Shown here piece by piece: positions 1-38,564 of a stretch of 38,564 nucleotides of DNA. The translations under genes were made by a program, and so were the position numbers. The notes beneath the pieces were generated by a model. That model ran no database searches and was not told the DNA's origin. It was given only the letters and a program-made list of their open reading frames with translations. Numbering within the stretch: the first letter of the stretch is position 1; every line of letters begins with the position of its first letter. Source of the stretch: a virus; IMG/VR virus record IMGVR_UViG_3300032038_000266, positions 1-38,564 of that record. One strand, given 5' to 3'.

Positions 1-127
1 TCCTCTGCGGCTTTCTCCGCCGCGCTCTTCTTTTGCTTACATCCGACAATCGCGATGCACGCGATGACGAGAATTGTCAATGCTCTTTTCATAGTGCTAT
101 GCTTTTGAGAGTGATTCAATGATCGAG
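1..127. repeat. Terminal overlap identical to 38438..38564 (circular-assembly overlap)
   Basis: Read directly: tcctctgcggctttctcc...gtgattcaatgatcgag occurs at both contig ends. It duplicates the 5' end of the minus-strand lipoprotein gene (ATG at 92..90 here, 38529..38527 at the other end). Confidence 0.95.
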
Positions 128-3063: not shown

Positions 3064-3115
3064 CAAATACCAACGCTCGAAGGTGTAAGAGAGCAATAAA
3101 ACTACACAATCAATT

Positions 3116-4033
3116 ATGGCTTATCAAAGCAAAGAAGTGAAAACTTCCAATCTCGCAGAGTTCAATGTGGCTCTGCGCTCGCAGAAGACTCAAGCAATGG
3201 TCTTGACATCTCTTCGCGGCAAGGCGGACGAGTATTTCCGCAACATCGCTTCCGCAGTGGCGAACTCCGCCGATTTGCAGAAGTGTGATCCAGTAACGCT
3301 CATCTGCGGCGGACTCCAGGCTGCGCAGCTCCAGCTTCCTCTCGGAAGCGGACTCGGCTTCGCGTATCTGATTCCCTTCAAGAACACGAAGAAAGGGATC
3401 TACGAAGCGCAGTTCCAGCTCGGCTATAAAGGACTCGTCCAGCTGGCAATCCGTTCCGGACTCTTCGCCGAAATCAACTGCGGCGAAGTGTACGAAGGCG
3501 AACTCTCCGACTTCAATCGCATCGCCGGCACATTCAAGCTGGACGGCAAGAAGGAGAGTGACAAAATCATCGGCTACTTCGCTTACTTCCGTCTGAACAA
3601 CGGAGACACTCCGGAGAAGTGCTTCTCGAAGTCTCTCTATATGTCCGCCGAAGAAGTGGAGAAGCACGCGAAACGCTACTCGCAGACATACTCCAGCCAG
3701 TATGACTCCACGCGCGCCGCATCCAAGTGGACAACGGACTTTGAAGCAATGGCAAAGAAGACCGTCCTCAAGCTCTTACTCTCTCGCTACGCTCCTATGT
3801 CCGTGGAGATCCAGCAAGCTGTCTCTTCAGATCAGGCAATCATCCGCGAAGACGGAGTGCTTGACTATGTGGACAACACAGCTCCGGAAGAGCAAGTCCA
3901 GGAAGAGAGCGCAGACGCTGCCGCCGCAATCCGTGGCGCAGCCGAGAACAAAGTCGCAGCCGCCGTGGAAGCATCTGATGCTGCTGTGGAGAAAGCGGAC
4001 AAAGACACTGGTGAAATCTTTAATCAGCAATAG
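3116..4033 (+). CDS. recT: RecT-family single-strand annealing protein
   Basis: GSGLGFAYLIPF and QFQLGYKGLVQLAIRSG motifs typical of RecT. Paired with a downstream YqaJ exonuclease. Confidence 0.85.
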   Translation: MAYQSKEVKTSNLAEFNVALRSQKTQAMVLTSLRGKADEYFRNIASAVANSADLQKCDPVTLICGGLQAAQLQLPLGSGLGFAYLIPFKNTKKGIYEAQFQLGYKGLVQLAIRSGLFAEINCGEVYEGELSDFNRIAGTFKLDGKKESDKIIGYFAYFRLNNGDTPEKCFSKSLYMSAEEVEKHAKRYSQTYSSQYDSTRAASKWTTDFEAMAKKTVLKLLLSRYAPMSVEIQQAVSSDQAIIREDGVLDYVDNTAPEEQVQEESADAAAAIRGAAENKVAAAVEASDAAVEKADKDTGEIFNQQ

Positions 4034-4035
4034 AT

Positions 4036-4503
4036 ATGGAAATTCTCATCGTAGATCCTATCTCTCTCGTGAATGTTCCGCTCCAGGAGTGGAAGGAGAG
4101 AGAGAATCCGCAGAGCGCGGATCTCATCGTCATCAAGACTGACGAGAAAGAACTTTACATCAGCAAGAACATTCTTCCAGGACGCTTCGACTTCAACGAT
4201 GCGCAGAAGGCAGCAGCCGCGTTCATTCCGGCTCGCTCTCCGAAGCTGGACTTCCGCTGTCCGACTCGCAAAGAGTGCATAGACATCTATGACGCTCGCT
4301 TCGCCGGACTGGATGAAGCAATCGAACTGCTCGGCGGAGAGAAAATCTCCGGTCACTGGTATTGGACTTCCGAAGCCGATCCGGATCCAGAGTACAACAG
4401 CAACAACGCGTTCTTCTTCTACGGCGGCTACGGCAGACTGGGCAGCATCTACAAGTACACCACAAACACTGTGCGTCCGGTCTCCGCTTTTCTGAATCGT
4501 TAA
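4036..4503 (+). CDS. Remote DGR target protein (155 aa, DUF1566/C-type-lectin-fold-like, VR2 at C-terminus)
   Basis: C-terminus ...GHWYWTSEADPDPEYNSNNAFFFYGGYGRLGSIYKYTTNTVRPVSAFLNR. Its last ~100 nt match TR with differences only at TR adenines. FRCPTRKECIDIY resembles the W-x-L-P-T/E-E-L motif of DUF1566. Start is 2 nt after the recT stop. Confidence 0.85.
   Translation: MEILIVDPISLVNVPLQEWKERENPQSADLIVIKTDEKELYISKNILPGRFDFNDAQKAAAAFIPARSPKLDFRCPTRKECIDIYDARFAGLDEAIELLGGEKISGHWYWTSEADPDPEYNSNNAFFFYGGYGRLGSIYKYTTNTVRPVSAFLNR
4390..4489 (+). repeat. DGR variable repeat 2 (VR2)
   Basis: Ungapped alignment to TR 32217..32316 gives 13 mismatches, all at TR adenines. Confidence 0.9.
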
Positions 4504-4514
4504 ACTGATTATCT

Positions 4515-4554
4515 ATTCCGCTCCGTGTTGCTCTACGGAGTCACGGAGCGGATT
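4515..4554 (+). promoter_or_regulatory. Hairpin 25 nt downstream of VR2 (candidate DGR target-recognition element / terminator)
   Basis: Arms attccgctccgtg / cacggagcggatt (13 nt, one internal mismatch), loop ttgctctacggagt. Same flanks and geometry as the hairpin after VR1. Confidence 0.6.
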
Positions 4555-4569
4555 CAAAAGACAAAGACT

Positions 4570-5532
4570 ATGGCAAATATCATCATTAGACCGAAGTCGC
4601 GCGAAGACTGGCTCAAGGAGCGCAGCACGCGCATCGGCGGCAGCGAAATCTCCGCTGTCGTGGGAATGAATCCGTTCGAGAGCGCATATTCATTGTGGCG
4701 CAGAAAGAAAGGACTGGATCCGGCGAAGACTGAGAACTTCGCTATGAAAGCCGGACACTATCTCGAAGACGCAGTGGCGCAGTTCTATCAGGACGCTTCC
4801 GGACGCTCTATCATCAAGCGCAGCGCAATTGACTGGCTGTATGTCAATCGCGAGAAGCCGTTCTTGTCCGGCAGTCCGGATCGCACATTTTGGCTCTCCG
4901 GCAACAAGGCGGACGGCAAAGGCGTACTGGAATGCAAGACAACGCAGAAGCCGATTGACGCAGAGGATCTGCCGCGCCACTGGTTTATCCAGGTGCAGTG
5001 GAATCTCGGACTGGCGGAGATGCCGCTCGGCTCTCTCGCTTGGCTCACTCAGGGCAGAGAGTTCGGCTACAAGGACATCGCGTTCGTTCCGGACTTCTAC
5101 GGCTGGCTCGTGGAAGAAGGGGAGAAGTTCTATCGCGACTGCATCATCGGAGACCGTGAGCCGGAAGCTCGCTGCGTGGCGGACATCCTGACGAAGTTCT
5201 CCAGGAGCGCAGCAGAGACTCGCGCTCTTGAGGAAGTCTTCTCCGGAGAGCCGGACAAAGCCGAGAGCATCGCGCTCGCTTGCTCGGAGTATAAGGAAAT
5301 CAAAGACCAGATCTCCGCGCTGGAAGAGAAGAAAGACGAGCTGGAAGAGCGCATCAAGATGTGCTTCGGAGAAGCTGAAGCAATCTCTTACGGCGGACTG
5401 ACTCTCGCCACTTGGAAGAGTGCGAAAGACTCGGAGAAGTTTGACGCGAAAGCATTCGCGAAGGACAATCCGGATCTCGCGGCTCAGTACACGAAGTCCG
5501 TTTCAGGCTCCAGGCGTTTTCTTGTCAAATAG
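4570..5532 (+). CDS. YqaJ-like viral recombinase-domain exonuclease (lambda Exo-type PD-(D/E)XK)
   Basis: RSTRIGGSEISAVVGMNPFESAYSLWRRKKG and GSPDRTF...LECKTT motifs. ORF track 4525 starts on GTG inside the hairpin. ATG 4570 has the CTATGGCA context. Confidence 0.85.
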   Translation: MANIIIRPKSREDWLKERSTRIGGSEISAVVGMNPFESAYSLWRRKKGLDPAKTENFAMKAGHYLEDAVAQFYQDASGRSIIKRSAIDWLYVNREKPFLSGSPDRTFWLSGNKADGKGVLECKTTQKPIDAEDLPRHWFIQVQWNLGLAEMPLGSLAWLTQGREFGYKDIAFVPDFYGWLVEEGEKFYRDCIIGDREPEARCVADILTKFSRSAAETRALEEVFSGEPDKAESIALACSEYKEIKDQISALEEKKDELEERIKMCFGEAEAISYGGLTLATWKSAKDSEKFDAKAFAKDNPDLAAQYTKSVSGSRRFLVK

Positions 5533-5540
5533 TGTGCGCT

Positions 5541-5798
5541 ATGGGAATACTATTGGGAAATCTCACAGTTCAAGACTTCGAGCAGCGTCTCGGAATCAAG
5601 TTCTCGGACGAAGACCGGAACGCGCTGAAGGAAATGCGCCAAGAGGAAGCGAGCAATCTCCAGCCAGGCAAGATTCACATCTTCGATCTTCCTTTCACTG
5701 TCGCTTGCGGAGACTCCGCCACGCAGAAGAAAGTGCTGGATATACTCTACAAGTTCGACACGAGCAAGTTTCCGCCGCTCTCTATCGGAGTCAAATAA
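5541..5798 (+). CDS. Hypothetical protein (85 aa)
   Basis: ORF track 5532 (GTG). First ATG at 5541 in CTATGG context. Confidence 0.55.
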   Translation: MGILLGNLTVQDFEQRLGIKFSDEDRNALKEMRQEEASNLQPGKIHIFDLPFTVACGDSATQKKVLDILYKFDTSKFPPLSIGVK

Positions 5799-5827
5799 AC
5801 TGTTCAGTTAAAAAATTTGACTGAAAG

Positions 5828-5860
5828 GCGTACAATATAAGCAGAAAATTCATACATTTG
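5828..5860 (+). promoter_or_regulatory. Promoter: degenerate 15-bp dyad (gcgtacaatATAAGC) + 10 nt + -7 box TACATTTG
   Basis: Same ATAAGC-N10-TAnnTTTG arrangement as at 12118-12150. It sits in the 220-nt gap ahead of the replication genes. Confidence 0.55.
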
Positions 5861-5883
5861 CATATCCTTAAATTCACGGCACT

Positions 5884-6021
5884 ATGGCAAAGTCATCTAC
5901 AATCAGAGTTTCGCACTCTCAGAATGGACTCTCCGCGAGGAAGTCCGGCGTTTCTTCACGCAGCTCTTGCGTGTCTGCCGTGACGCTTAGGAGTTCTGAG
6001 AGTGAGAAACTTTTTGTTTGA
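5884..6021 (+). CDS. Possible small Ser-rich ORF (45 aa) or untranslated leader
   Basis: CTATGGCA start context immediately downstream of the promoter. Translation: MAKSSTIRVSHSQNGLSARKSGVSSRSSCVSAVTLRSSESEKLFV. Composition is unconvincing. Confidence 0.25.
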   Translation: MAKSSTIRVSHSQNGLSARKSGVSSRSSCVSAVTLRSSESEKLFV

Positions 6022-9876: not shown

Positions 9877-10449
9877 ATGCCTGAACTCCAAAGTGAACGG
9901 AAGACAGCCGTCCCTGGAGCATCGCATCTATTCCGTGGAAGGATGCGCTCCGGCACTGACTACCGGCTTTCACTATCTCATCGCAATCGGGGGGGGCAGA
10001 TAGACACTAAAGATATGGAAACACTCAGAATCAGGGAAGCAACCGTGAAAGGATTCACGGAAGTCCAAGAGGGCGGACTCTTTGACGCATCATATCCGCA
10101 GTCGAAGACTCGGCGCGGAAGGGTGCAAGGAGAGAACGGCGAGCTGTGTCCGACTCTCACTACGCACGGAGACCGGATATGCCGCTTTGAAGGATCTGAC
10201 GGACGCACGATGCGAATCCGCCGTCTGACGGAGCGCGAATCGTTCCGGCTTATGGGAGTGCGCGACTCGGACATCGATCTCATTCAGGCGGCGGAGTTCG
10301 AGATCGAGAGCAAGGGCAAGACTCGCGTCAGTCGGATCTCTTCGACTCAGCAATACGCAATCGCCGGAAACAGCATTGTCGTGGATGTGCTTGACGCAAT
10401 CTTCGAGAATATGTTCTATCCGGTCAGGGAAGAAGGACAACTCTTCTGA
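9877..10449 (+). CDS. DNA (cytosine-5)-methyltransferase, C-terminal part (TRD-like segment + motifs IX and X)
   Basis: RRLTERESFRLMGV (IX) and AIAGNSIVV (X). Upstream TRD-like LRIREATVKGFTEVQEGG...SKTRRGRV...LCPTLTTHG. Confidence 0.8.
   Translation: MPELQSERKTAVPGASHLFRGRMRSGTDYRLSLSHRNRGGQIDTKDMETLRIREATVKGFTEVQEGGLFDASYPQSKTRRGRVQGENGELCPTLTTHGDRICRFEGSDGRTMRIRRLTERESFRLMGVRDSDIDLIQAAEFEIESKGKTRVSRISSTQQYAIAGNSIVVDVLDAIFENMFYPVREEGQLF
9989..9996 (+). repeat. Homopolymeric G8 tract at a frame junction in the MTase C-terminal region
   Basis: Counted directly (aatcGGGGGGGGcaga). Gain of one G would fuse the small ORF 9857..10003 to ORF 9877..10449. Confidence 0.9.
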
Positions 10450-30310: not shown

Positions 30311-31651
30311 ATGGCAAAACAAGTAAACAAGTACGCAACGAAAGCTGCATACACTGCGGACACTAACCGTTCCGCAGCCAAGTCTGCCGTGTCCTATATC
30401 ACGGAAGACAGTGCCGTCAAGTATGACGGCGTGAATGCTGTCGTGGAGAAAGATGCTGCTCAGATCGGCGATCTGGTAGTGTATGACAAGAGCGAAGGAC
30501 GCATCCGCTTTGTCGTGGCGAAGACTCTCGTGAAGAATCAGCTCGGCGCGGAACTCGTTCCGCTTGCAGTCGTGTATGCTCGTCAGGGCAAGCGGCTGCT
30601 CATCGTCTCTCTCTCGAATCAAGGCTCACATCGCTGGGCGCATACTTTTGAAGTATGTCTGCGCGGCATTGATCCGACAACTGCCGGCACGCTGGCAATC
30701 ATCGTTCACAACAACGGCGCACTCTCCGAAGAAGTGGATGTGTCTTGGGGAAATGACAGCACGCTCGCCGCTATCGCCGCTTCTATCTCGGCTCAGTTCC
30801 AGACTCTGACTGACGCTGATGACAAAGCGTGGGTAGCTGCCGTAGACGGCGCGAACATTATTCTCGGACATAACTATTATCTCGTGGACACTGTCACTTC
30901 CGTCTCCGGAACTGGCGGCGGCGCGAATGTCTCCTATGTCGAAGACACTGTGAACTACCAGTGTAGTTATGCCTATCTCGCCGGAACTGAGGATGTCCGC
31001 AGAAACAACTATGTGGACACTTCCTTCGGCGGCGGCAATCTGAAGAAGTTCATTGACTACTACGGCACGAACGGAACGACTCCCACCGGAAACATTCCTC
31101 TCGGAGACAGCACGATTGTCAATCGCGCATCGTTCGAGTCCAGCGCATACTGCGCGGATCTGCGCGCCGCATACTCCACATACGAAGAGTATATGGAGAA
31201 GGAGCAGATGTGCCAGCTTCCGTCCAAGTTCGGAGCGCAGCTGCGTGACGGCAAGGAGACAACAGCCTGGCTCGCCGCTCAGTTCGGCACTGATGTCCGT
31301 GGCATAGACGAGCCGCGCTATCCGGCTGCTTCCGTGGTGAAGAACTACGGCGTGACCGTAGCCGGACACACGACTGGACTGGAGAGCGGACACTGGTGGC
31401 TTCCGTCCGTGACGGAGATGCTGATTCTGATGCGTGACCGCCGCTACAACGGCAGCGATACGGATCCGGATCCGATCAACGACACGCTCGTGAAGATGAG
31501 CGGAGATACTATCTACGGAAACGGATATTATCCGTGGACTTGTGGCGAGTACAACAGCAGCAGCGCGTTCCTCTTCAACGGCTACATCGGCACACTGCGC
31601 ATCCACGACAAGTACGGCGCAGGCACTGTGCGTCCGGTCTCCGCTTTGTAG
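30311..31651 (+). CDS. DGR target protein 1 (446 aa; putative receptor-binding protein with C-terminal DUF1566/C-type-lectin-fold-like domain carrying VR1)
   Basis: GHWWLPSVTEMLILM motif and C-terminus CGEYNSSSAFLFNGYIGTLRIHDKYGAGTVRPVSAL. The last 104 nt match TR apart from A-site changes. Confidence 0.9.
   Translation: MAKQVNKYATKAAYTADTNRSAAKSAVSYITEDSAVKYDGVNAVVEKDAAQIGDLVVYDKSEGRIRFVVAKTLVKNQLGAELVPLAVVYARQGKRLLIVSLSNQGSHRWAHTFEVCLRGIDPTTAGTLAIIVHNNGALSEEVDVSWGNDSTLAAIAASISAQFQTLTDADDKAWVAAVDGANIILGHNYYLVDTVTSVSGTGGGANVSYVEDTVNYQCSYAYLAGTEDVRRNNYVDTSFGGGNLKKFIDYYGTNGTTPTGNIPLGDSTIVNRASFESSAYCADLRAAYSTYEEYMEKEQMCQLPSKFGAQLRDGKETTAWLAAQFGTDVRGIDEPRYPAASVVKNYGVTVAGHTTGLESGHWWLPSVTEMLILMRDRRYNGSDTDPDPINDTLVKMSGDTIYGNGYYPWTCGEYNSSSAFLFNGYIGTLRIHDKYGAGTVRPVSAL
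31543..31646 (+). repeat. DGR variable repeat 1 (VR1)
   Basis: Ungapped alignment to TR 32213..32316 gives 17 mismatches, all at TR adenines. Confidence 0.92.
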
Positions 31652-31670: not shown

Positions 31671-31708
31671 ATTCCGCGCGGCATTGCCGTAGTGCTGCCG
31701 CGCGGATT
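31671..31708 (+). promoter_or_regulatory. Hairpin 24 nt downstream of VR1 (candidate DGR target-recognition element / terminator)
   Basis: Arms attccgcgcggca / tgccgcgcggatt (13 nt, one internal mismatch), loop ttgccgtagtgc, followed by cttt. Confidence 0.6.
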
Positions 31709-31732: not shown

Positions 31733-32152
31733 ATGGCAAAGAATCTCGAAAAGCTGGAAATCTATCACAAGGCGTATCTCTTCTCGATCTACCTGGAGCA
31801 GAAAGTCACGAAGTTCGATAGACGCTATCGTTTCACGCTGGCGGACAAACTCTCGGACGGCATTGACAAGTTCATCTGCGCCGTGCTGGACGCGAATAGA
31901 GAGACGAACAAAGGCAAGGCTGCGCGCATCATCTACTATGCGCTTGGCGAGCTGGACAAGATAGAATACCGGACTCGGAAAGCAGTCGCTCTGAATCAGA
32001 TGTCCGTAGACACAAAGGCAAAATGCGACATTGCACTTGAAGACTTGCGCTCAGACGCAAGACGCTGGCGGAAATACTATCTCCAACTTTGTGGTGCGAG
32101 TGCCGGAGACGCTCCTGAAGAGGATGACTCTCCGGCAGAGAGCCAAGAATAG
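31733..32152 (+). CDS. avd: DGR accessory variability determinant (Avd-like four-helix-bundle protein)
   Basis: 139 aa, helical and basic (KLEIYHKAYLFSIYLEQKVTKFDRRYRFTLADKLSDGIDKF...). Sits in the canonical position between target and TR/RT. Confidence 0.75.
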   Translation: MAKNLEKLEIYHKAYLFSIYLEQKVTKFDRRYRFTLADKLSDGIDKFICAVLDANRETNKGKAARIIYYALGELDKIEYRTRKAVALNQMSVDTKAKCDIALEDLRSDARRWRKYYLQLCGASAGDAPEEDDSPAESQE

Positions 32153-32212
32153 ATTTGTTTTTGAAAAGGTCGCTGCGCTCTCATTCAGAGCTATATCGAA
32201 AGCAGCGAAAAT

Positions 32213-32316
32213 TGGCGAGTACAACAGCAACAACGCGTTCATCTTCAACGGCAACAACGGCAAACTGAACAACAACAACAAGTACAACACAAACACTGTG
32301 CGTCCGGTCTCCGATT
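32213..32316 (+). repeat. DGR template repeat (TR)
   Basis: 104 bp with 38 adenines and 12 AAC codons in the VR reading frame (GEYNSNNAFIFNGNNGKLNNNNKYNTNTVRPVSD). It is the donor for VR1 and VR2. Confidence 0.92.
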
Positions 32317-32336
32317 CTCAAAACAAACAGCGTGGA

Positions 32337-33623
32337 GTGGCAAACATCAGTTTCTCTGAGTTCGCGGCTTCAGTGTATGTCGCATATCTTGTGTGTCTGA
32401 AGAACAAAGCCGGCACGATGAACGCTCTGAAGTTTCGCGTGAACGAGAGCGAGAATCTGCTGGAGCTGGCGCGTGATGTCTACAACTGCGAGTATGTGCC
32501 GAAGCCGTCTATCGCGTTCATCATCACTCGTCCGTGCCTGAGAGAAGTCATCGCGGCGGACTTCTCCGATAGAATAATGCAGCATTGGGTAGTGATGCGC
32601 ATAGGGCCGCTCTTTGACCGCTGCAAGACAATTCCGGAGAATATGTACTCTTGTCGCATCGGCAAGAGGAATCTCGCCGCTCTCGTGCATCTGCGCGATG
32701 CAATCTTCCGGAAATCTCGCGGCTATCGCAGCGAGTGCTGGATAGGCAAGTTCGACTTGTCTTCGTTCTTTATGAGCATAGACAAGCGGCGGCTCTATGA
32801 CGATCTTGTGGATCTCGTCCAGCGCGAATATCACGAGCCGGACAAGGACTGGCTTCTCTATGTCATCCGTATCATCACTTTCATAGTCCCTACGGAACAC
32901 GCGATGCGGAAGTCTCCTATCTATGCGTGGAATCCGCTTCCGGCGCAGAAGAGCAGCTACAATCTTGACTGGTTTTTAGGACTGGCTATCGGCAATCTAT
33001 GGAGTCAGACTGACGCGAACTTCTACAACGCTCCAGTCATTGCTTGGATTCTCCAGCACTCGTCCGCAGATGTCGTGAACTATGTGGATGACACGACTCT
33101 CGTGGCGGACAACAAGTCCGACATCCTGAATCTGATGCCGTGGATCCGGAAGGAGTTCCAGGAGCAGCGCGGACTCCAACTGCACAAGAAGAAGTTCTCG
33201 CTCCAGTCGTTCGACAAAGGCGTGAAGTTTCTCGGCGGCGTAGTCAAGTTCAATCGTCTCTACATCAACAATCGCACTGTTGCGAAACTGATGAACAAAG
33301 TCCACTACTACAACACACAGTACGCGGAGACTCATCGCCGCCGCGCTCGCAATGTGGAGAAGTTCGTCACTATCATAAACTCTTACTTCGGTCTGATGCG
33401 CCACTTCGCGACTTACAACATCCGGAAGCGCATCTCTGAAGACATTCTCTCTCGCTGGCGCGGCTATCTCTACTTTGAGCCGAATCTTCAGAAGGCGGTC
33501 ATCATAAGCAAGTATCGCCGCGACAAGCAAGCCGCGTTCCGCGCTCGCCGCCAGCATCGCAAAGACATCTATCAACTAAATCATATCTACTATGCAAACA
33601 CAGCTTTCAATCAATGCGCTTGA
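32337..33623 (+). CDS. DGR reverse transcriptase
   Basis: IGNLWSQ (DGR-type motif 4) and NYVDDTTLV (YxDD). The N-terminal ...AYLVCLKNK...ENLLELARDVYNCEYVPKP aligns with DGR RT N-termini, so the start must precede the first ATG (32418). GTG 32337 is proposed. The ORF track extends to 32031 only because TR lacks stops. Confidence 0.88.
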   Translation: MANISFSEFAASVYVAYLVCLKNKAGTMNALKFRVNESENLLELARDVYNCEYVPKPSIAFIITRPCLREVIAADFSDRIMQHWVVMRIGPLFDRCKTIPENMYSCRIGKRNLAALVHLRDAIFRKSRGYRSECWIGKFDLSSFFMSIDKRRLYDDLVDLVQREYHEPDKDWLLYVIRIITFIVPTEHAMRKSPIYAWNPLPAQKSSYNLDWFLGLAIGNLWSQTDANFYNAPVIAWILQHSSADVVNYVDDTTLVADNKSDILNLMPWIRKEFQEQRGLQLHKKKFSLQSFDKGVKFLGGVVKFNRLYINNRTVAKLMNKVHYYNTQYAETHRRRARNVEKFVTIINSYFGLMRHFATYNIRKRISEDILSRWRGYLYFEPNLQKAVIISKYRRDKQAAFRARRQHRKDIYQLNHIYYANTAFNQCA

Positions 33624-35373: not shown

Positions 35374-35877
35374 ATGGAAGACAAGAAGATTGACATCTAT
35401 CCGCTCATCACGGCTCTCTGCGTGCTGTGCCTGATATTCGGCTTCGGACTCGGAAACCGGATCGCGAAGCGGAACTATATCACGATAGAAAAGCGCGACA
35501 CTGTCACGATAGTGCAGACGATCCACGACACAACGAAACTCGTCCAGTGGCGTGACCGCGTCCGCACGGACACTCTCTTCTTTCCGGTCACTGACACGCT
35601 GCATCACACGGACACTCTTGCCGTGCCAGTCCAGATCGAGCAGAAGACATATCAGACGGAGAACTATCGCGCAGTCGTGGAAGGCTGGCATCCGGAGCTT
35701 GTCTCCATAGACATCTATCAGAAGGAGAAGATCATCACGATAGAGAAGCAGATTGCTCCGAAGAAGTGGACATTCGGCGCGACAATCGGCGTGACTGGCG
35801 GCGCGTTCTACACTCCGAAAGGATTCCAGCCAGGCATCGGAGTCGGAGCGAGCATCGGCGCGACATATCATTTTTGA
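35374..35877 (+). CDS. N-terminally membrane-anchored protein (possible spanin-like lysis accessory)
   Basis: TM IYPLITALCVLCLIFGFGLG and a Gly-rich C-terminus. The call is based on position after the endolysin. Confidence 0.4.
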   Translation: MEDKKIDIYPLITALCVLCLIFGFGLGNRIAKRNYITIEKRDTVTIVQTIHDTTKLVQWRDRVRTDTLFFPVTDTLHHTDTLAVPVQIEQKTYQTENYRAVVEGWHPELVSIDIYQKEKIITIEKQIAPKKWTFGATIGVTGGAFYTPKGFQPGIGVGASIGATYHF

Positions 35878-35880
35878 CGC

Positions 35881-35908
35881 ATCATTTTCGTAGTCTCACG
35901 AAAATGAT
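35881..35908 (+). terminator. A/T-rich perfect hairpin after the lysis cluster, abutting a -7-like box TATATTTG (35909-35916)
   Basis: atcattttcgt-agtctc-acgaaaatgat (11-bp stem). No clean T-run, so terminator function is uncertain. Confidence 0.35.
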
Positions 35909-36112
35909 TATATTTGCATATCAACTCGGACACTCTTGTGGGAGCTGAAGAAAACAGCGGCTGCTGATCTGATTGCAAGCGGAGATGCAGAAGTGACGGA
36001 ACGGATGCTCAATGGCGATAGACGAAAGTCGCGGAAAGTCAGTCGTGCGCACGGCTGGCTTTCTTGTTAAAAATGCTTATCTTTGTAGCCGGAAACGGCG
36101 GCTCGGAGAGCT

Positions 36113-36127
36113 GCGTATGTCATAAGC
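36113..36127. promoter_or_regulatory. Fifth copy of the 15-bp dyad motif (GCGTATgtcATAAGC)
   Basis: Read directly in the non-coding region upstream of int. A TATCTTTG -7-like box lies at 36078-36085. Confidence 0.4.
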
Positions 36128-36139
36128 AATTCCAGCAAT

Positions 36140-36379
36140 TTTGTTGCTGGTTTGTTGCTCAAAATTTGAAAAGATAGATGCAAAGCACTGATATTTCGCG
36201 ACATACGCGAGTTTTACTAAGAACTGCCACGGAAAGGGGATAGTGTAAAGCCGGAACAACAAGAAACAAATGCAGACAAGCTGGAAGCACGATTCGGTTT
36301 GTCTGCTTTTGTTTGGATATGCGACATTTTTGTTGCATCTTTGTTGCGCTGCTTCCAAAAAAGCAACAAGCGCAACAAA
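36140..36379. repeat. Six copies of TTTGTTGC in phased pairs upstream of int (candidate arm-type/regulatory sites within attP)
   Basis: Direct copies at 36140, 36151, 36329 and 36340 (11-bp spacing within pairs). Inverted copies GCAACAAG at 36363 and GCAACAAA at 36372. An 11-bp inverted repeat tttgttgcgct (36340-36350) / agcgcaacaaa (36369-36379). Confidence 0.5.
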
Positions 36380-36404
36380 CTCCGAACAAAAAGCGTCCGA
36401 CATT

Positions 36405-37553
36405 ATGGCTACATCAAAAGAGCCGATCCGTCTCCGGCGGCGGCTTACTCCTTCAGGCAAGGAGTCTCTCTATCTTGACATCTACATTGACGGGAAGCGG
36501 AGCTACGAATATCTGAAGCTCTATCTCATTCCGGAACACTCACGCGAAGACAAGGAAAAGAATCGGCAGACGCTCCAGCTGGCGGAAGCCGTCCGCAGCA
36601 AGAGAGTCGTGGACTTGCAGAATAAACGCTTCGGCTTTATGAAAGGCTTCGCTACTGACACGAATCTCTTCGACTACACGGAGATGCTCATCGAACGCAG
36701 ATATTCGCTGGAATCTCTCGGCAATTGGGGAAACTGGCGTTCATATCTCGTGCATCTGAAAATCTACTGTCCGAACACTTCAACAACTCTCGGCGATGTC
36801 ACTCCGGAGTTCGTCCAGGGATTCAAGGACTATCTTGAGTTTAAGGCGGAGTGTCAGACGAACACGAAGGCGAAGCCAGGCGAGCGGCGCAAGCTCTCGC
36901 AGAACGCAAAGTGCGGCTACTTCAACAAGATGCGCTGCACAATGAACACGGCGTTCAAGGAAGGACTCATTCCGAAGAATCCTATCAACGGCATTTCGGC
37001 AATCAAAGAAGGAGATCCGGAGCGTGTCTATCTCACTATCGAAGAAGTGCGGAAACTCGCCGCAACGGAGTGCAAATATCCGGCACTCAAGCGAGCGTAT
37101 CTCTTCTCGTGCCTGACTGGACTCCGGCTCTCCGACATCAAGAAGCTGCGCTGGAGCGAGATTCGCGAAGAGGGCGGCTTCACTCGCATCGTCTTTCGGC
37201 AGAAGAAGACCAAAGAGCAAGAGTATCTTGACATCTCTCCGGAAGCGTCTCGTCTACTCGGCGAGCGCAAGGATCCGGAGACGCTCGTCTTCTCGGACTT
37301 TCTCTATGATGTGTATATGCGGCACGAGCTGCGCGCGTGGTGCTTGCGCGCCGGCATTCCGAAGTCTCCCACTTTCCACTCTGGACGGCACACTTTCGCC
37401 GTGATGATGCTCGATCTGGACGCGGACATCTATACCGTGCAGAAACTGCTCGGACACGCGGAAATCAAAACGACTGAGATATATGCGAAGATTCTTGACC
37501 GGAAGAAGCAAGCGGCGGTGCTGAAGATTCCGGACATCGGACTCTCGAAGTAA
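36405..37553 (+). CDS. int: Tyrosine-type site-specific integrase
   Basis: LTGLRLSDIKKLRW (Arg), HSGRHTFAV (H-x-x-R) and LLGHAEIKTTEIYA (His...Tyr). The N-terminal SLYLDIYIDGKRSYEYLKLYL is arm-binding-like. ORF track 36270 extends through the repeat region; ATG 36405 is preferred. Confidence 0.9.
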   Translation: MATSKEPIRLRRRLTPSGKESLYLDIYIDGKRSYEYLKLYLIPEHSREDKEKNRQTLQLAEAVRSKRVVDLQNKRFGFMKGFATDTNLFDYTEMLIERRYSLESLGNWGNWRSYLVHLKIYCPNTSTTLGDVTPEFVQGFKDYLEFKAECQTNTKAKPGERRKLSQNAKCGYFNKMRCTMNTAFKEGLIPKNPINGISAIKEGDPERVYLTIEEVRKLAATECKYPALKRAYLFSCLTGLRLSDIKKLRWSEIREEGGFTRIVFRQKKTKEQEYLDISPEASRLLGERKDPETLVFSDFLYDVYMRHELRAWCLRAGIPKSPTFHSGRHTFAVMMLDLDADIYTVQKLLGHAEIKTTEIYAKILDRKKQAAVLKIPDIGLSK

Positions 37554-37808
37554 CTACTTGCCGAAGATGTTTCCTCTTCCAGTGAGAAGCCAGTTCGCGT
37601 TCACTCCGTAGTCTTCCACGAGATAGCGCAGCCAGGCGCACTGGAAGATGTTGCGCTCAGGCGATTTGCGGAGCTGGTAGAGATTCCGCCGATTGATTCC
37701 GTGCTGCTCCGTGAAGTTCGTCACTCCGTGGATCCGGCGGATGTCTTTCAGTGTGTCCAGTGCAAGGAAGAAGCGGCGCACTATCGCTTCGGAGTCCGGA
37801 GTCTGCAT
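37554..37808 (-). CDS. HTH DNA-binding protein (84 aa)
   Basis: C-terminal NANWLLTGRGNIF, typical of XRE-like HTH proteins. Last gene of the leftward operon; its stop abuts the int stop. Confidence 0.6.
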   Translation of the reverse strand: MQTPDSEAIVRRFFLALDTLKDIRRIHGVTNFTEQHGINRRNLYQLRKSPERNIFQCAWLRYLVEDYGVNANWLLTGRGNIFGK

Positions 37809-38251
37809 AGTTCTTCAGATTTATCGTTTGCGGCAGCGAATTTCGCGTCTATCTCGGCAAGATGAGCAGATAGTCGTTTTTCCAGCGAGCCGCGCTCTGC
37901 GGCTAAAAGAGACGGCAAAGCGCGTGTTTTGACGCACTCTTCAAAGTCGGAGAGTTCCGCCGCAGTCATTATCGGCAAATACTTCTCATATTCGAGCAGT
38001 TCGCGGATGTAGAGCAGCGTCTCGTCCTGGAGCCGGAAGCGAGTGTCCAGCATATCGCCGTCTCCGGTCAGAAGCCAGCGCGCATTCAGTTCCGGCACGG
38101 CTCGGACAATCGCAAGGACTGGAGTCAGTCCAAAGTTCTCTCCGCAGAGCAGCTTCGTCAGGTATTGCGGAGTCCAGCCGCAGAGCGAAGCGAACTCTCG
38201 CTTGCGTCCGCCAGTCTTGTAGTCTATGATCTGAGCAAGACGCGTCTTCAT
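37781..38251 (-). CDS. HTH regulator with C-terminal helical domain (candidate CI-like repressor)
   Basis: MKTRLAQIIDYKTGGRKREFASLCGWTPQYLTKLL...ARWLLTGDGDML, plus an about 90-aa C-terminal domain. Confidence 0.6.
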   Translation of the reverse strand: MKTRLAQIIDYKTGGRKREFASLCGWTPQYLTKLLCGENFGLTPVLAIVRAVPELNARWLLTGDGDMLDTRFRLQDETLLYIRELLEYEKYLPIMTAAELSDFEECVKTRALPSLLAAERGSLEKRLSAHLAEIDAKFAAANDKSEELCRLRTPKR

Positions 38252-38529
38252 CTCTCTACGGTCTCAAGCGTCATACGGATCGTCTCTTCCAGATCTTTGC
38301 CGTGCAGCATCCGGAACATCTCGAATGTGGATGCAGTGTCTATCGGCATCATTCCGGCGGCTTCCAGTTCCGCGTTCGCGCGTATGATGCGCTCTCGCGC
38401 GCTTTCAATTATTGTCTGCTCATACTGGAGCTGCGCTTCCTCTGCGGCTTTCTCCGCCGCGCTCTTCTTTTGCTTACATCCGACAATCGCGATGCACGCG
38501 ATGACGAGAATTGTCAATGCTCTTTTCAT
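38248..38529 (-). CDS. Small lipoprotein (93 aa) in the lysogeny operon
   Basis: MKRALTILVIACIAIVGC gives a signal peptide with an I-V-G-C lipobox. The start lies 4 nt after the stop of HTH gene 97..444 across the circular junction. ATGA overlap with the next gene. Confidence 0.7.
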   Translation of the reverse strand: MKRALTILVIACIAIVGCKQKKSAAEKAAEEAQLQYEQTIIESARERIIRANAELEAAGMMPIDTASTFEMFRMLHGKDLEETIRMTLETVER

Positions 38530-38564
38530 AGTGCTATGCTTTTGAGAGTGATTCAATGATCGAG
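38438..38564. repeat. Terminal overlap identical to 1..127
   Basis: Exact 127-nt identity with the start of the window. Confidence 0.95.

Follow-up and report, generated by a model that had tools for sequence, protein, structure and literature searches.

We analysed a stretch of viral DNA of 38,564 nucleotides (nt), IMG/VR record IMGVR_UViG_3300032038_000266, which is called the window below. It carries a diversity-generating retroelement (DGR). Our subject is a small open reading frame (ORF) of 155 amino acids (aa), ORF155, which is located between the recombination genes recT and yqaJ, remote from the retroelement, and carries a second variable repeat (VR2) at its 3' end. The first and last 127 nt of the window (1-127 and 38438-38564) are an exact direct repeat, the assembly overlap (k = 127) of a circular genome whose unit is 38,437 bp. 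The following features were found at the ORF155 locus.

3116 to 4033, plus strand: recT, single-stranded DNA (ssDNA)-annealing recombinase (Pfam RecT 5.7e-43, PHROG 148 2.2e-67), directly upstream of ORF155
4016 to 4549, plus strand: accessory cassette, consisting of the last recT codons, ORF155 and the hairpin
4036 to 4503, plus strand: ORF155, 155 aa, small protein of predicted DUF1566/Lcl_C-like C-type-lectin fold, second DGR target
4390 to 4489, plus strand: VR2, with the GC-rich 3' end ACTGTGCGTCCGGTCTCCGCTT that resembles an initiation of mutagenic homing (IMH) site
4517 to 4552, no strand: GC-rich inverted repeat (hairpin/cruciform) 27 nt 3' of VR2, putative DGR target-recognition element
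4570 to 5532, plus strand: YqaJ/RecE-like recombination exonuclease (Pfam YqaJ 2.4e-18, PHROG 434 1.3e-73), directly downstream of ORF155

The DGR itself comprises these features.

30311 to 31651, plus strand: cassette-adjacent canonical DGR target, 446 aa, with variable repeat 1 (VR1) at 31547-31646
31673 to 31706, no strand: hairpin/cruciform 26 nt 3' of VR1
31733 to 32152, plus strand: avd, accessory variability determinant (PHROG 3206 'Avd protein of DGR', 1.8e-9)
32217 to 32316, plus strand: template repeat (TR), 38% adenine, AAC-rich
32337 to 33623, plus strand: DGR reverse transcriptase (RT; Pfam RVT_1 2.5e-10, PHROG 1423 9.8e-65), start approximate

The ATG of ORF155 lies 2 nt past the recT stop. 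A DGR-type RT and Avd adjoin TR on the same circular replicon, and the spacing from TR to VR2 is 27.8 kb directly or 10.6 kb across the circle junction. ORF155 had been put forward as a second, remote DGR target in a first-pass annotation made from the sequence alone. The start of ORF155 given there was found to hold, its assignments of RecT, the YqaJ exonuclease, Avd and RT were confirmed by Pfam/PHROG, and the peptides it quoted are exact. TR itself lies in frame within one long open frame (32031-33623) that continues into the RT, and it keeps an ORF-like AAC-codon structure. As the RT homology begins at about residue 116 of the 32031 ORF, the RT probably starts at GTG 32337 or 32373.

Adenine-specific variation at VR2

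VR2 aligned with TR without gaps and differed from it at 13 of 100 positions, all 13 of them at TR adenines, just as the first-pass annotation had reported. TR has 38 adenines in its 100 nt, and for 13 mismatches placed at random the hypergeometric probability of hitting only A is 7.6e-7. VR1 showed 17 mismatches to TR, again exclusively at adenines (17/17). Both VRs are in frame 0 with the TR codons. The mismatches of VR2 were found only in codon positions 1 or 2, and VR2 ends 14 nt ahead of the ORF155 stop, i.e. at the 3' end of the ORF. Nine mutated positions are common to VR1 and VR2, with the same base at two of them, and the repeats differ from each other at 19 positions; they have therefore been diversified independently, as had been proposed. 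Similarity between ORF155 and the 446-aa VR1 target is limited to residues 92-152 and 389-446, respectively. One of the 13 changes may be of a different kind. The A-to-C change at 4487 (TR 32314) is common to VR1 and VR2, the VR segment GTGCGTCCGGTCTCCG is conserved, and both VRs have GCTT against GATT in TR exactly at the end of homology. A comparable fixed difference was found in Alistipes-type lineages, with CCGCTT in VR and CCGAATT in TR. Judged from these sequences, the change at 4487 is more likely a fixed IMH/IMH* boundary than a random adenine mutation, so that the earlier claim of adenine mutations stands for the location of all 13 differences but probably not for the origin of this one.

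The variation was then followed across natural relatives. The 90%-identity cluster holding the window protein has 17 members from different samples, and the alignment (n = 16) contained the window protein, 14 others of this cluster and P0002, with an identity of at least 89% between the window protein and each of these 15. Each of the 16 near-identical proteins had a VR of its own; an invariant VR2, which the first-pass annotation had named as the result that would speak against it, was thus clearly not observed. Residues 1-119 and 146-155 were almost invariant. The variable columns corresponded to A-containing TR codons (Y120, N121, N123, N124, I127, N129, N131, N132, K134, N136-N139, Y141, N142, T143, N144 and T145). 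E119, S122 and K140 were fixed despite their A-containing codons, which indicates selection on the scaffold. The contig L003 has a genome-wide identity of about 98% to the window and differed from it at 54 positions in the recT-ORF155-yqaJ region (2417 nt). Fourteen of these were inside the 100-nt VR2, all at TR-A positions (14/14), corresponding to a divergence of 14% in VR2 as compared to about 1.7% in the flanks. In ORF155 outside VR2 there were seven differences, six of them at third codon positions; by this measure the remainder of the gene is under strong purifying selection.

A GC-rich hairpin follows each of the two VRs. The arms of the VR2 hairpin are TCCGCTCCGTG...CACGGAGCGGA (4517-4552) after a 27-nt spacer, and those of the VR1 hairpin TCCGCGCGGCA...TGCCGCGCGGA (31673-31706) after a 26-nt spacer. 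The flanks TATTCCGC/GCGGATTC are common to both, and the four stem positions at which the hairpins differ are each compensated on the opposite arm. When folded as DNA, the VR2 hairpin had a free energy of -15.8 kcal/mol (z = -6.4) and the VR1 hairpin of -16.4 kcal/mol (z = -3.6), and none of 200 shuffles was as stable in either case; the stretch after TR gave no significant hairpin against shuffles (z = -1.25). Analogous hairpins with different stem sequences were found 3' of VR2 in other lineages. An intrinsic terminator was considered for the hairpin and rejected, as there is no T-run and the terminator scan makes no call. Experiments on the Bordetella phage BPP-1 showed that efficient retrohoming depends on a GC-rich hairpin/cruciform located 4-34 bp downstream of VR, with the structure of the stem being important and its sequence not, and that a heterologous gene becomes a target when it is given the IMH together with the hairpin (Guo et al. 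2011, PMC3240598). The hairpins following VR1 and VR2 agree with this requirement.

Based on the unique VRs on an invariant backbone, the TR-A differences to L003 and the shared cis hairpin, VR2 looks like an active DGR target. We find it extremely improbable that VR2 is a passive relic, i.e. a copy of VR or TR brought in by recombination on which the DGR no longer acts or has never acted, in an unimportant gene. Other phages do have family members that look frozen and have no hairpin, and rearrangement breakpoints are seen at the hairpin in some contigs, as a relic would have it; however, the 16 unique VR2 variants, with substitutions confined to TR-A positions on an invariant backbone, exclude a relic, and the IMH-like end and the hairpin are intact and the rest of ORF155 is under strong purifying selection.

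Regarding the breakpoints, divergence exactly within the VR2 hairpin was observed in four contigs, of which L024 (at about 2600) and L032 (about 5690) retain only the 5' arm and L031 (about 3600) and L041 (about 1090) only the 3' arm. By sequence comparison, the VR2 hairpin may thus be a recombination or assembly breakpoint in some IMG/VR contigs. The idea that loss of the hairpin freezes the VR was raised by L031, L032, L033 and L035, which share one VR, and was rejected. L033 and L035 retain the hairpin and yet share this VR, so the four are probably one strain.

Fold and family of ORF155

An AlphaFold2 model of ORF155 built on a 27-sequence family alignment had a predicted local distance difference test (pLDDT) of 83 and a predicted template modelling score (pTM) of 0.79. 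Its top Foldseek match in the PDB was 8q4e, the C-terminal domain of Legionella Lcl (E 4.1e-5, probability 1.0; template modelling scores 0.51/0.59 over 118 columns, 28% identity), with C-type lectins next in the ranking, and the structure matches in BFVD were phage DUF1566 proteins. The family profile hit only 8q4e among the PDB sequences (E 0.031). Against Pfam Lcl_C (PF07603) ORF155 scored 18.0 bits (E 0.0035), which is below the gathering threshold of 34.9 bits; nine of the 27 family members matched Lcl_C at E <= 0.01, the best at 3.2e-5. ORF155 contains FRCPTRKE and WYWTSE, which we take to be the WRLPT..E and yWss motifs of DUF1566. ORF155 is thus predicted from the model to be a single minimal DUF1566/Lcl-like C-type lectin-fold domain, as it had been described from the sequence, with the Lcl C-terminal/DUF1566 domain as its best structural counterpart.

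The expectation that ORF155 has no signal peptide was also correct. Neither a signal peptide nor a transmembrane segment was found in the protein (maximum 19-aa Kyte-Doolittle hydropathy 0.89), and the model has a confident beta-strand at the N-terminus. The 155 aa contain no recognisable docking or oligomerisation domain. ORF155 differs from Mtd-type proteins in having no N-terminal beta-prism or beta-sandwich attachment domains and in the location of its gene outside the tail module and the DGR cassette.

The ORF155 family has 426 homologues at 90% clustering. An exhaustive hidden Markov model (HMM) search of 1.84 billion cluster representatives returned 196 relatives (50% representatives) at E <= 0.001, and the family is therefore narrow. 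Its members are nearly all of 130-260 aa, match the profile end to end and have the N-terminal 50 residues conserved. Ten extended members were scanned against Pfam and showed no known tail, structural or effector domain and no informative fusion. P0231 has a C-terminal crAss001_48-related domain, and in P0164 (348 aa) the family domain is duplicated in tandem. The family had no match in PHROGs, PADLOC or NCBIfam. It was not found in 50,697 GenBank phage records by DNA and protein searches (tblastn, with the locus and three family members), where the sole match was the cassette-adjacent DUF1566 target of Bacteroides phages Bacuni_F1/F2.

An accessory gene in early regions

The relative L134 (IMGVR_UViG_3300002377_000117) has a recT 96-97% and a yqaJ 97-99% identical to those of the window and no ORF155. 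Its homology covers window 3111-4015 and then 4550-5958, the segment 4016-4549 having no counterpart, and the distance from the recT stop to the yqaJ ATG is 8 nt. Because recT and yqaJ are adjacent in L134, ORF155 and the hairpin constitute an accessory cassette, and since both are missing there, the gene and its recognition element are gained or lost as one unit. The adjacency of recT and yqaJ was judged from this one close relative only; among RecT homologues at about 40% identity no YqaJ was detectable within 3 kb.

Homologues of ORF155 were found in prophages of Alistipes, Rikenellaceae and other Bacteroidales, and also in many metagenomic phage contigs of 35-41 kb. The phages that carry the family are temperate, with an integrase and with prophage copies in Alistipes/Rikenellaceae genomes. 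The order recT, ORF155 homologue, yqaJ is present in the window, L003 and L004. In a second context, genes for a DUF3799 nuclease, NinG, DUF6291, PAPS reductase and a DNA methylase come before the homologue and the terminase after it. In others, the homologue lies directly 3' of a divergent repressor region, or it follows a DUF2800 nuclease and an Enc34 ssDNA-binding protein and precedes a C5 methylase, PolA and VapE, with an RT on the same contig, or it stands ahead of a pentapeptide-repeat protein gene on a 97-kb contig (L010). On at least five distinct phage backbones the family was located among recombination, replication and DNA-methylase genes and never in the tail module. The claim that ORF155 splits a RecT/Exo pair is accordingly valid as an insertion relative to the adjacent genes of L134, but the split is incidental, since the homologues occupy several other settings within early regions.

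At 44 loci, the four genes to the left and the four to the right of the ORF155 homologue were compared with Pfam through representatives. The neighbour families included DNA methylases, RecT, SSB, PolA, DnaG, VapE and Mu Gam, and further DUF2800, pentapeptide repeats and an SMC-like ATPase; there were no structural families among the 25 most frequent ones. The methylases near homologues were of the C5, Dam and N4/N6 types, accompanied by PAPS reductase, Mu Gam and pentapeptide proteins. The constant feature of the family loci is an early, DNA-metabolism or anti-restriction neighbourhood.

The window agrees with this. Its structural module extends from 13.4 to 31.7 kb, and ORF155 lies outside it in the early recombination/replication operon, where the first-pass annotation had also placed it, without structural neighbours. 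The structural genes themselves are in an unusual order: large terminase (13417), a 1061-aa tape-measure-like protein (20487), head protease (24017), a 352-aa possible major capsid protein (25283; PHROG family of unknown function), portal (27778) and the VR1 target (30311). From this order, the VR1 target adjoins portal-proximal genes and not recognisable tail-fibre genes. The lysogeny module crosses the circular junction (35374-38556 and 97-504) and lies ahead of the rightward early operon containing recT-ORF155-yqaJ. It consists of DUF6808, a tyrosine integrase of Bacteroidota type (36270-37553) and four genes on the minus strand; this layout was derived from the 98%-identical contig L003.

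Two targets at a distance from each other were also found elsewhere. Three IMG/VR contigs encode a small protein about 53% identical to ORF155 and have VR1 and TR 637 nt apart together with a remote VR2, linked through a 19-mer common to VR and TR; these contigs have another TR sequence, from which their VR2 departs at adenines. L004 has the same arrangement of VR1, TR and remote VR2. A scan of 10 kb on either side of 58 IMG/VR family loci found a TR in L032 only, because TRs usually lie further away; in L032 it is 1.7 kb downstream of VR2. Two family genes were seen on one 39-kb viral contig (L041 and L066, IMGVR_UViG_3300045988_118231) and likewise on one bacterial contig (L126 and L127, Rikenellaceae CABJAJ010000001.1). 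In L059, L060, L062 and L063 (gene at about 10001-10411), L037/L038, L044/L045 and L010/L011 the C-terminal region was identical across independent contigs and no hairpin follows the gene. These members are apparently not diversified by a DGR, and several of them are on contigs of 71-97 kb.

Proposed role and known systems

On balance, we favour the interpretation that the single DGR of the phage acts in trans on ORF155 as a second, functional target and that the protein is probably an intracellular hypervariable binder. By analogy with characterised elements, the standard DGR mechanism working in trans on a second site is well supported as the way in which VR2 would be diversified. As in BPP-1, TR RNA would be reverse-transcribed by the RT with Avd, the adenines being misread. 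The complementary DNA would then replace the 3' 100 nt of ORF155, guided by two elements, the IMH-like GC-rich VR2 end and the hairpin/cruciform that follows it after 27 nt, and VR1 would be served by its own copy of the hairpin element. In this way, diversification would rewrite the ligand-binding face of a one-domain DUF1566-type C-type-lectin protein.

ORF155 is probably co-transcribed with recT, as it starts 2 nt after the recT stop. In the infected cell the protein probably works as a hypervariable binder whose partner would be a variable factor of the host or of a competitor, with a role in counter-defence or host takeover, and a function as virion receptor-binding protein is improbable. 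The first-pass annotation had tentatively suggested a host-factor or defence-binding protein, and this remains a proposal here too. We infer early expression, cytoplasmic action and a role in conflict because the gene is tightly coupled to recT and lies in the early operon on many backbones, because export signals and docking domains are missing, and because its presence/absence pattern is like that of accessory counter-defence genes. Lambda Gam and P22 Abc modulate host nucleases. The position of ORF155 beside a phage recombinase pair recalls such modulators, by analogy only and with no homology.

Several observations weigh against an intracellular, DGR-driven role. 'Early' and 'cytoplasmic' are read from gene position only. 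To our knowledge, the DUF1566/C-lectin DGR targets characterised to date are extracellular or virion-exposed binders, and it is conceivable that the VR1 target, which uses the same TR scaffold, shares an extracellular ligand class with ORF155. Some family members (L059/60/62/63, L037, L044 and L010) are apparently non-diversified and have no hairpin, so the basic function does not require the DGR. The hairpin loops at VR1 and VR2 do not match the GRNA consensus of BPP-1-like elements, and neither PADLOC/NCBIfam matches nor a fused effector domain gave a hint at function.

Alternatively, ORF155 could be part of the virion or be released, as an accessory protein that binds receptors or glycans and whose gene happens to lie outside the structural module, either a small adaptor docking on the tail or capsid or a soluble lectin freed at lysis, and diversified for surface recognition like VR1. 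The C-type lectin/DUF1566 fold is that of surface-exposed DGR targets and Bacteroides pilus-tip adhesins (PMC5758913), the TR-encoded scaffold is common to ORF155 and the cassette-adjacent target, virion proteins likewise have no signal peptides, and other two-target phages have been read as having two receptor-binding proteins (PMC10743442). We nevertheless regard this as unlikely, given the early/DNA-metabolism neighbourhoods on at least five unrelated backbones and never beside tail genes, the absence of a recognisable docking or oligomerisation domain from the single-domain 155-aa protein, the presence or absence of the gene between phages about 96-97% identical, and the tight coupling to recT.

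An intracellular protein could also serve the lysogen. ORF155 would in that case be a hypervariable sensor for superinfection exclusion or defence that recognises proteins of incoming phages, the prophage counterpart of the DGR-diversified antigen sensors of multicellular bacteria. Such a sensor would fit temperate phages with an integrase and Alistipes/Rikenellaceae prophage copies as well as the moron-like, accessory occurrence of the gene, and intracellular DGR-diversified sensors have a precedent (PMC10907252). However, ORF155 has no effector or NTPase domain and no PADLOC match, it is co-oriented with the lytic early operon, and the 2 nt to recT leave no room for a promoter of its own. 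It is therefore quite improbable, in our estimate, that ORF155 works in this way.

The first-pass annotation had called a non-structural DGR target unusual, which overstated its rarity, as precedents exist (PMC8008677, PMC12629997, PMC5758913). Quimbyvirus has a second, distal and presumably non-structural DGR target among methyltransferases, for which a role in phage-host conflict was inferred by the authors (Benler et al. 2021, PMC8008677). Like the window phage, it is a temperate gut phage of Bacteroidota with one DGR and two VRs, one in an adjacent and one in a distal C-type-lectin target. In both, the distal target lies outside the structural module among DNA-modification or counter-defence genes, a likeness by position and description, and near-identical genomes show adenine-specific variation. 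Quimbyvirus is of about 75 kb and has its target on the opposite strand beside four methyltransferases, a MutY-like nuclease and a tRNA ligase, whereas the window phage is of 38.4 kb and has a co-oriented target between recT and yqaJ. A 2025 Nature paper describes a second distal VR close to counter-defence genes in four prophages of Bacteroidota (PMC12629997); its main text gives no protein-family description of these targets, and the comparison with ORF155 is by position only.

With BPP-1 the window shares TR-to-VR adenine mutagenesis, an ORF of C-type-lectin fold that has its VR at the 3' end, a GC-rich VR 3' end and a downstream GC-rich inverted repeat of variable stem sequence. The window hairpins differ in having an 11-bp outer stem plus an inner stem, a spacer of 26-27 nt and loops that are not GRNA. 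Mtd of BPP-1 is a 381-aa trimeric tail-fibre tip protein encoded beside the cassette, whereas ORF155 is a single domain of 155 aa encoded 10.6 or 27.8 kb away.

Many phage-associated DGRs, in prophages, have one adjacent and one non-adjacent target, and short targets with DUF1566 alone are common (CLec2 class, category 'd'; Wu et al. 2018, PMC5758913). ORF155 has in common with the CLec2 class the DUF1566/Lcl_C-like lectin domain and a C-terminal VR ending in a ...VRPV motif, and about half of that class are short single-domain proteins like ORF155. Legionella LdtA-type targets are surface lipoproteins with signal sequences, unlike ORF155, which has no signal. Compared with CLec2 and LdtA, ORF155 also scores under the Pfam Lcl_C gathering threshold and belongs to its own narrow family with the conserved N-terminal 50 residues. 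The tentaclin/tgt2 DGRs of small gut myoviruses resemble the window in that one TR serves two different C-lectin targets whose VRs differ, but both of their targets are inside the DGR cassette, have DUF6273 and Ig-like domains and were read as receptor-binding proteins (Baykov et al. 2023, PMC10743442). The largest DGR survey could not detect remote targets (Roux et al. 2021, PMC8144416), and a 2025 gut-virome atlas still describes the targets of DGRs as tail proteins in the typical case (PMC12636319).

The concept of a distal non-structural DGR target is thus already known and has been noted twice in related phages. What is new here is a delimited small-protein family, paired hairpins with compensatory differences, population-level evidence of VR2 activity, an empty-site relative and a distribution over the early regions of several backbones. 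Phage DGRs have been treated almost entirely as host-range devices on tail proteins (e.g. PMC12636319). The locus is a compact example of the other class of target, being single-domain, 155 aa long and apparently not part of the virion. An empty site exists in nature as a control, the cis element can be identified, and the invariant scaffold carries hundreds of natural variants; because of these the role of non-structural DGR targets becomes directly testable. Should ORF155 bind host defence or repair factors, it would be the first phage case of programmed hypermutation used for intracellular counter-defence. A further-reaching idea, which we put forward tentatively and hold to be possible rather than probable, is that the cassette, a minimal lectin domain with its recognition hairpin, is a portable 0.5-kb plug-in DGR target that can enter the early operon of whichever Bacteroidales phage carries a DGR, is then matched to the TR present there and gives intracellular antibody-like binders against variable host immunity or nuclease proteins. 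If this is true, these phages would use their DGR for pre-adaptive counter-defence and not for the receptor switching on which DGR phage biology is modelled.

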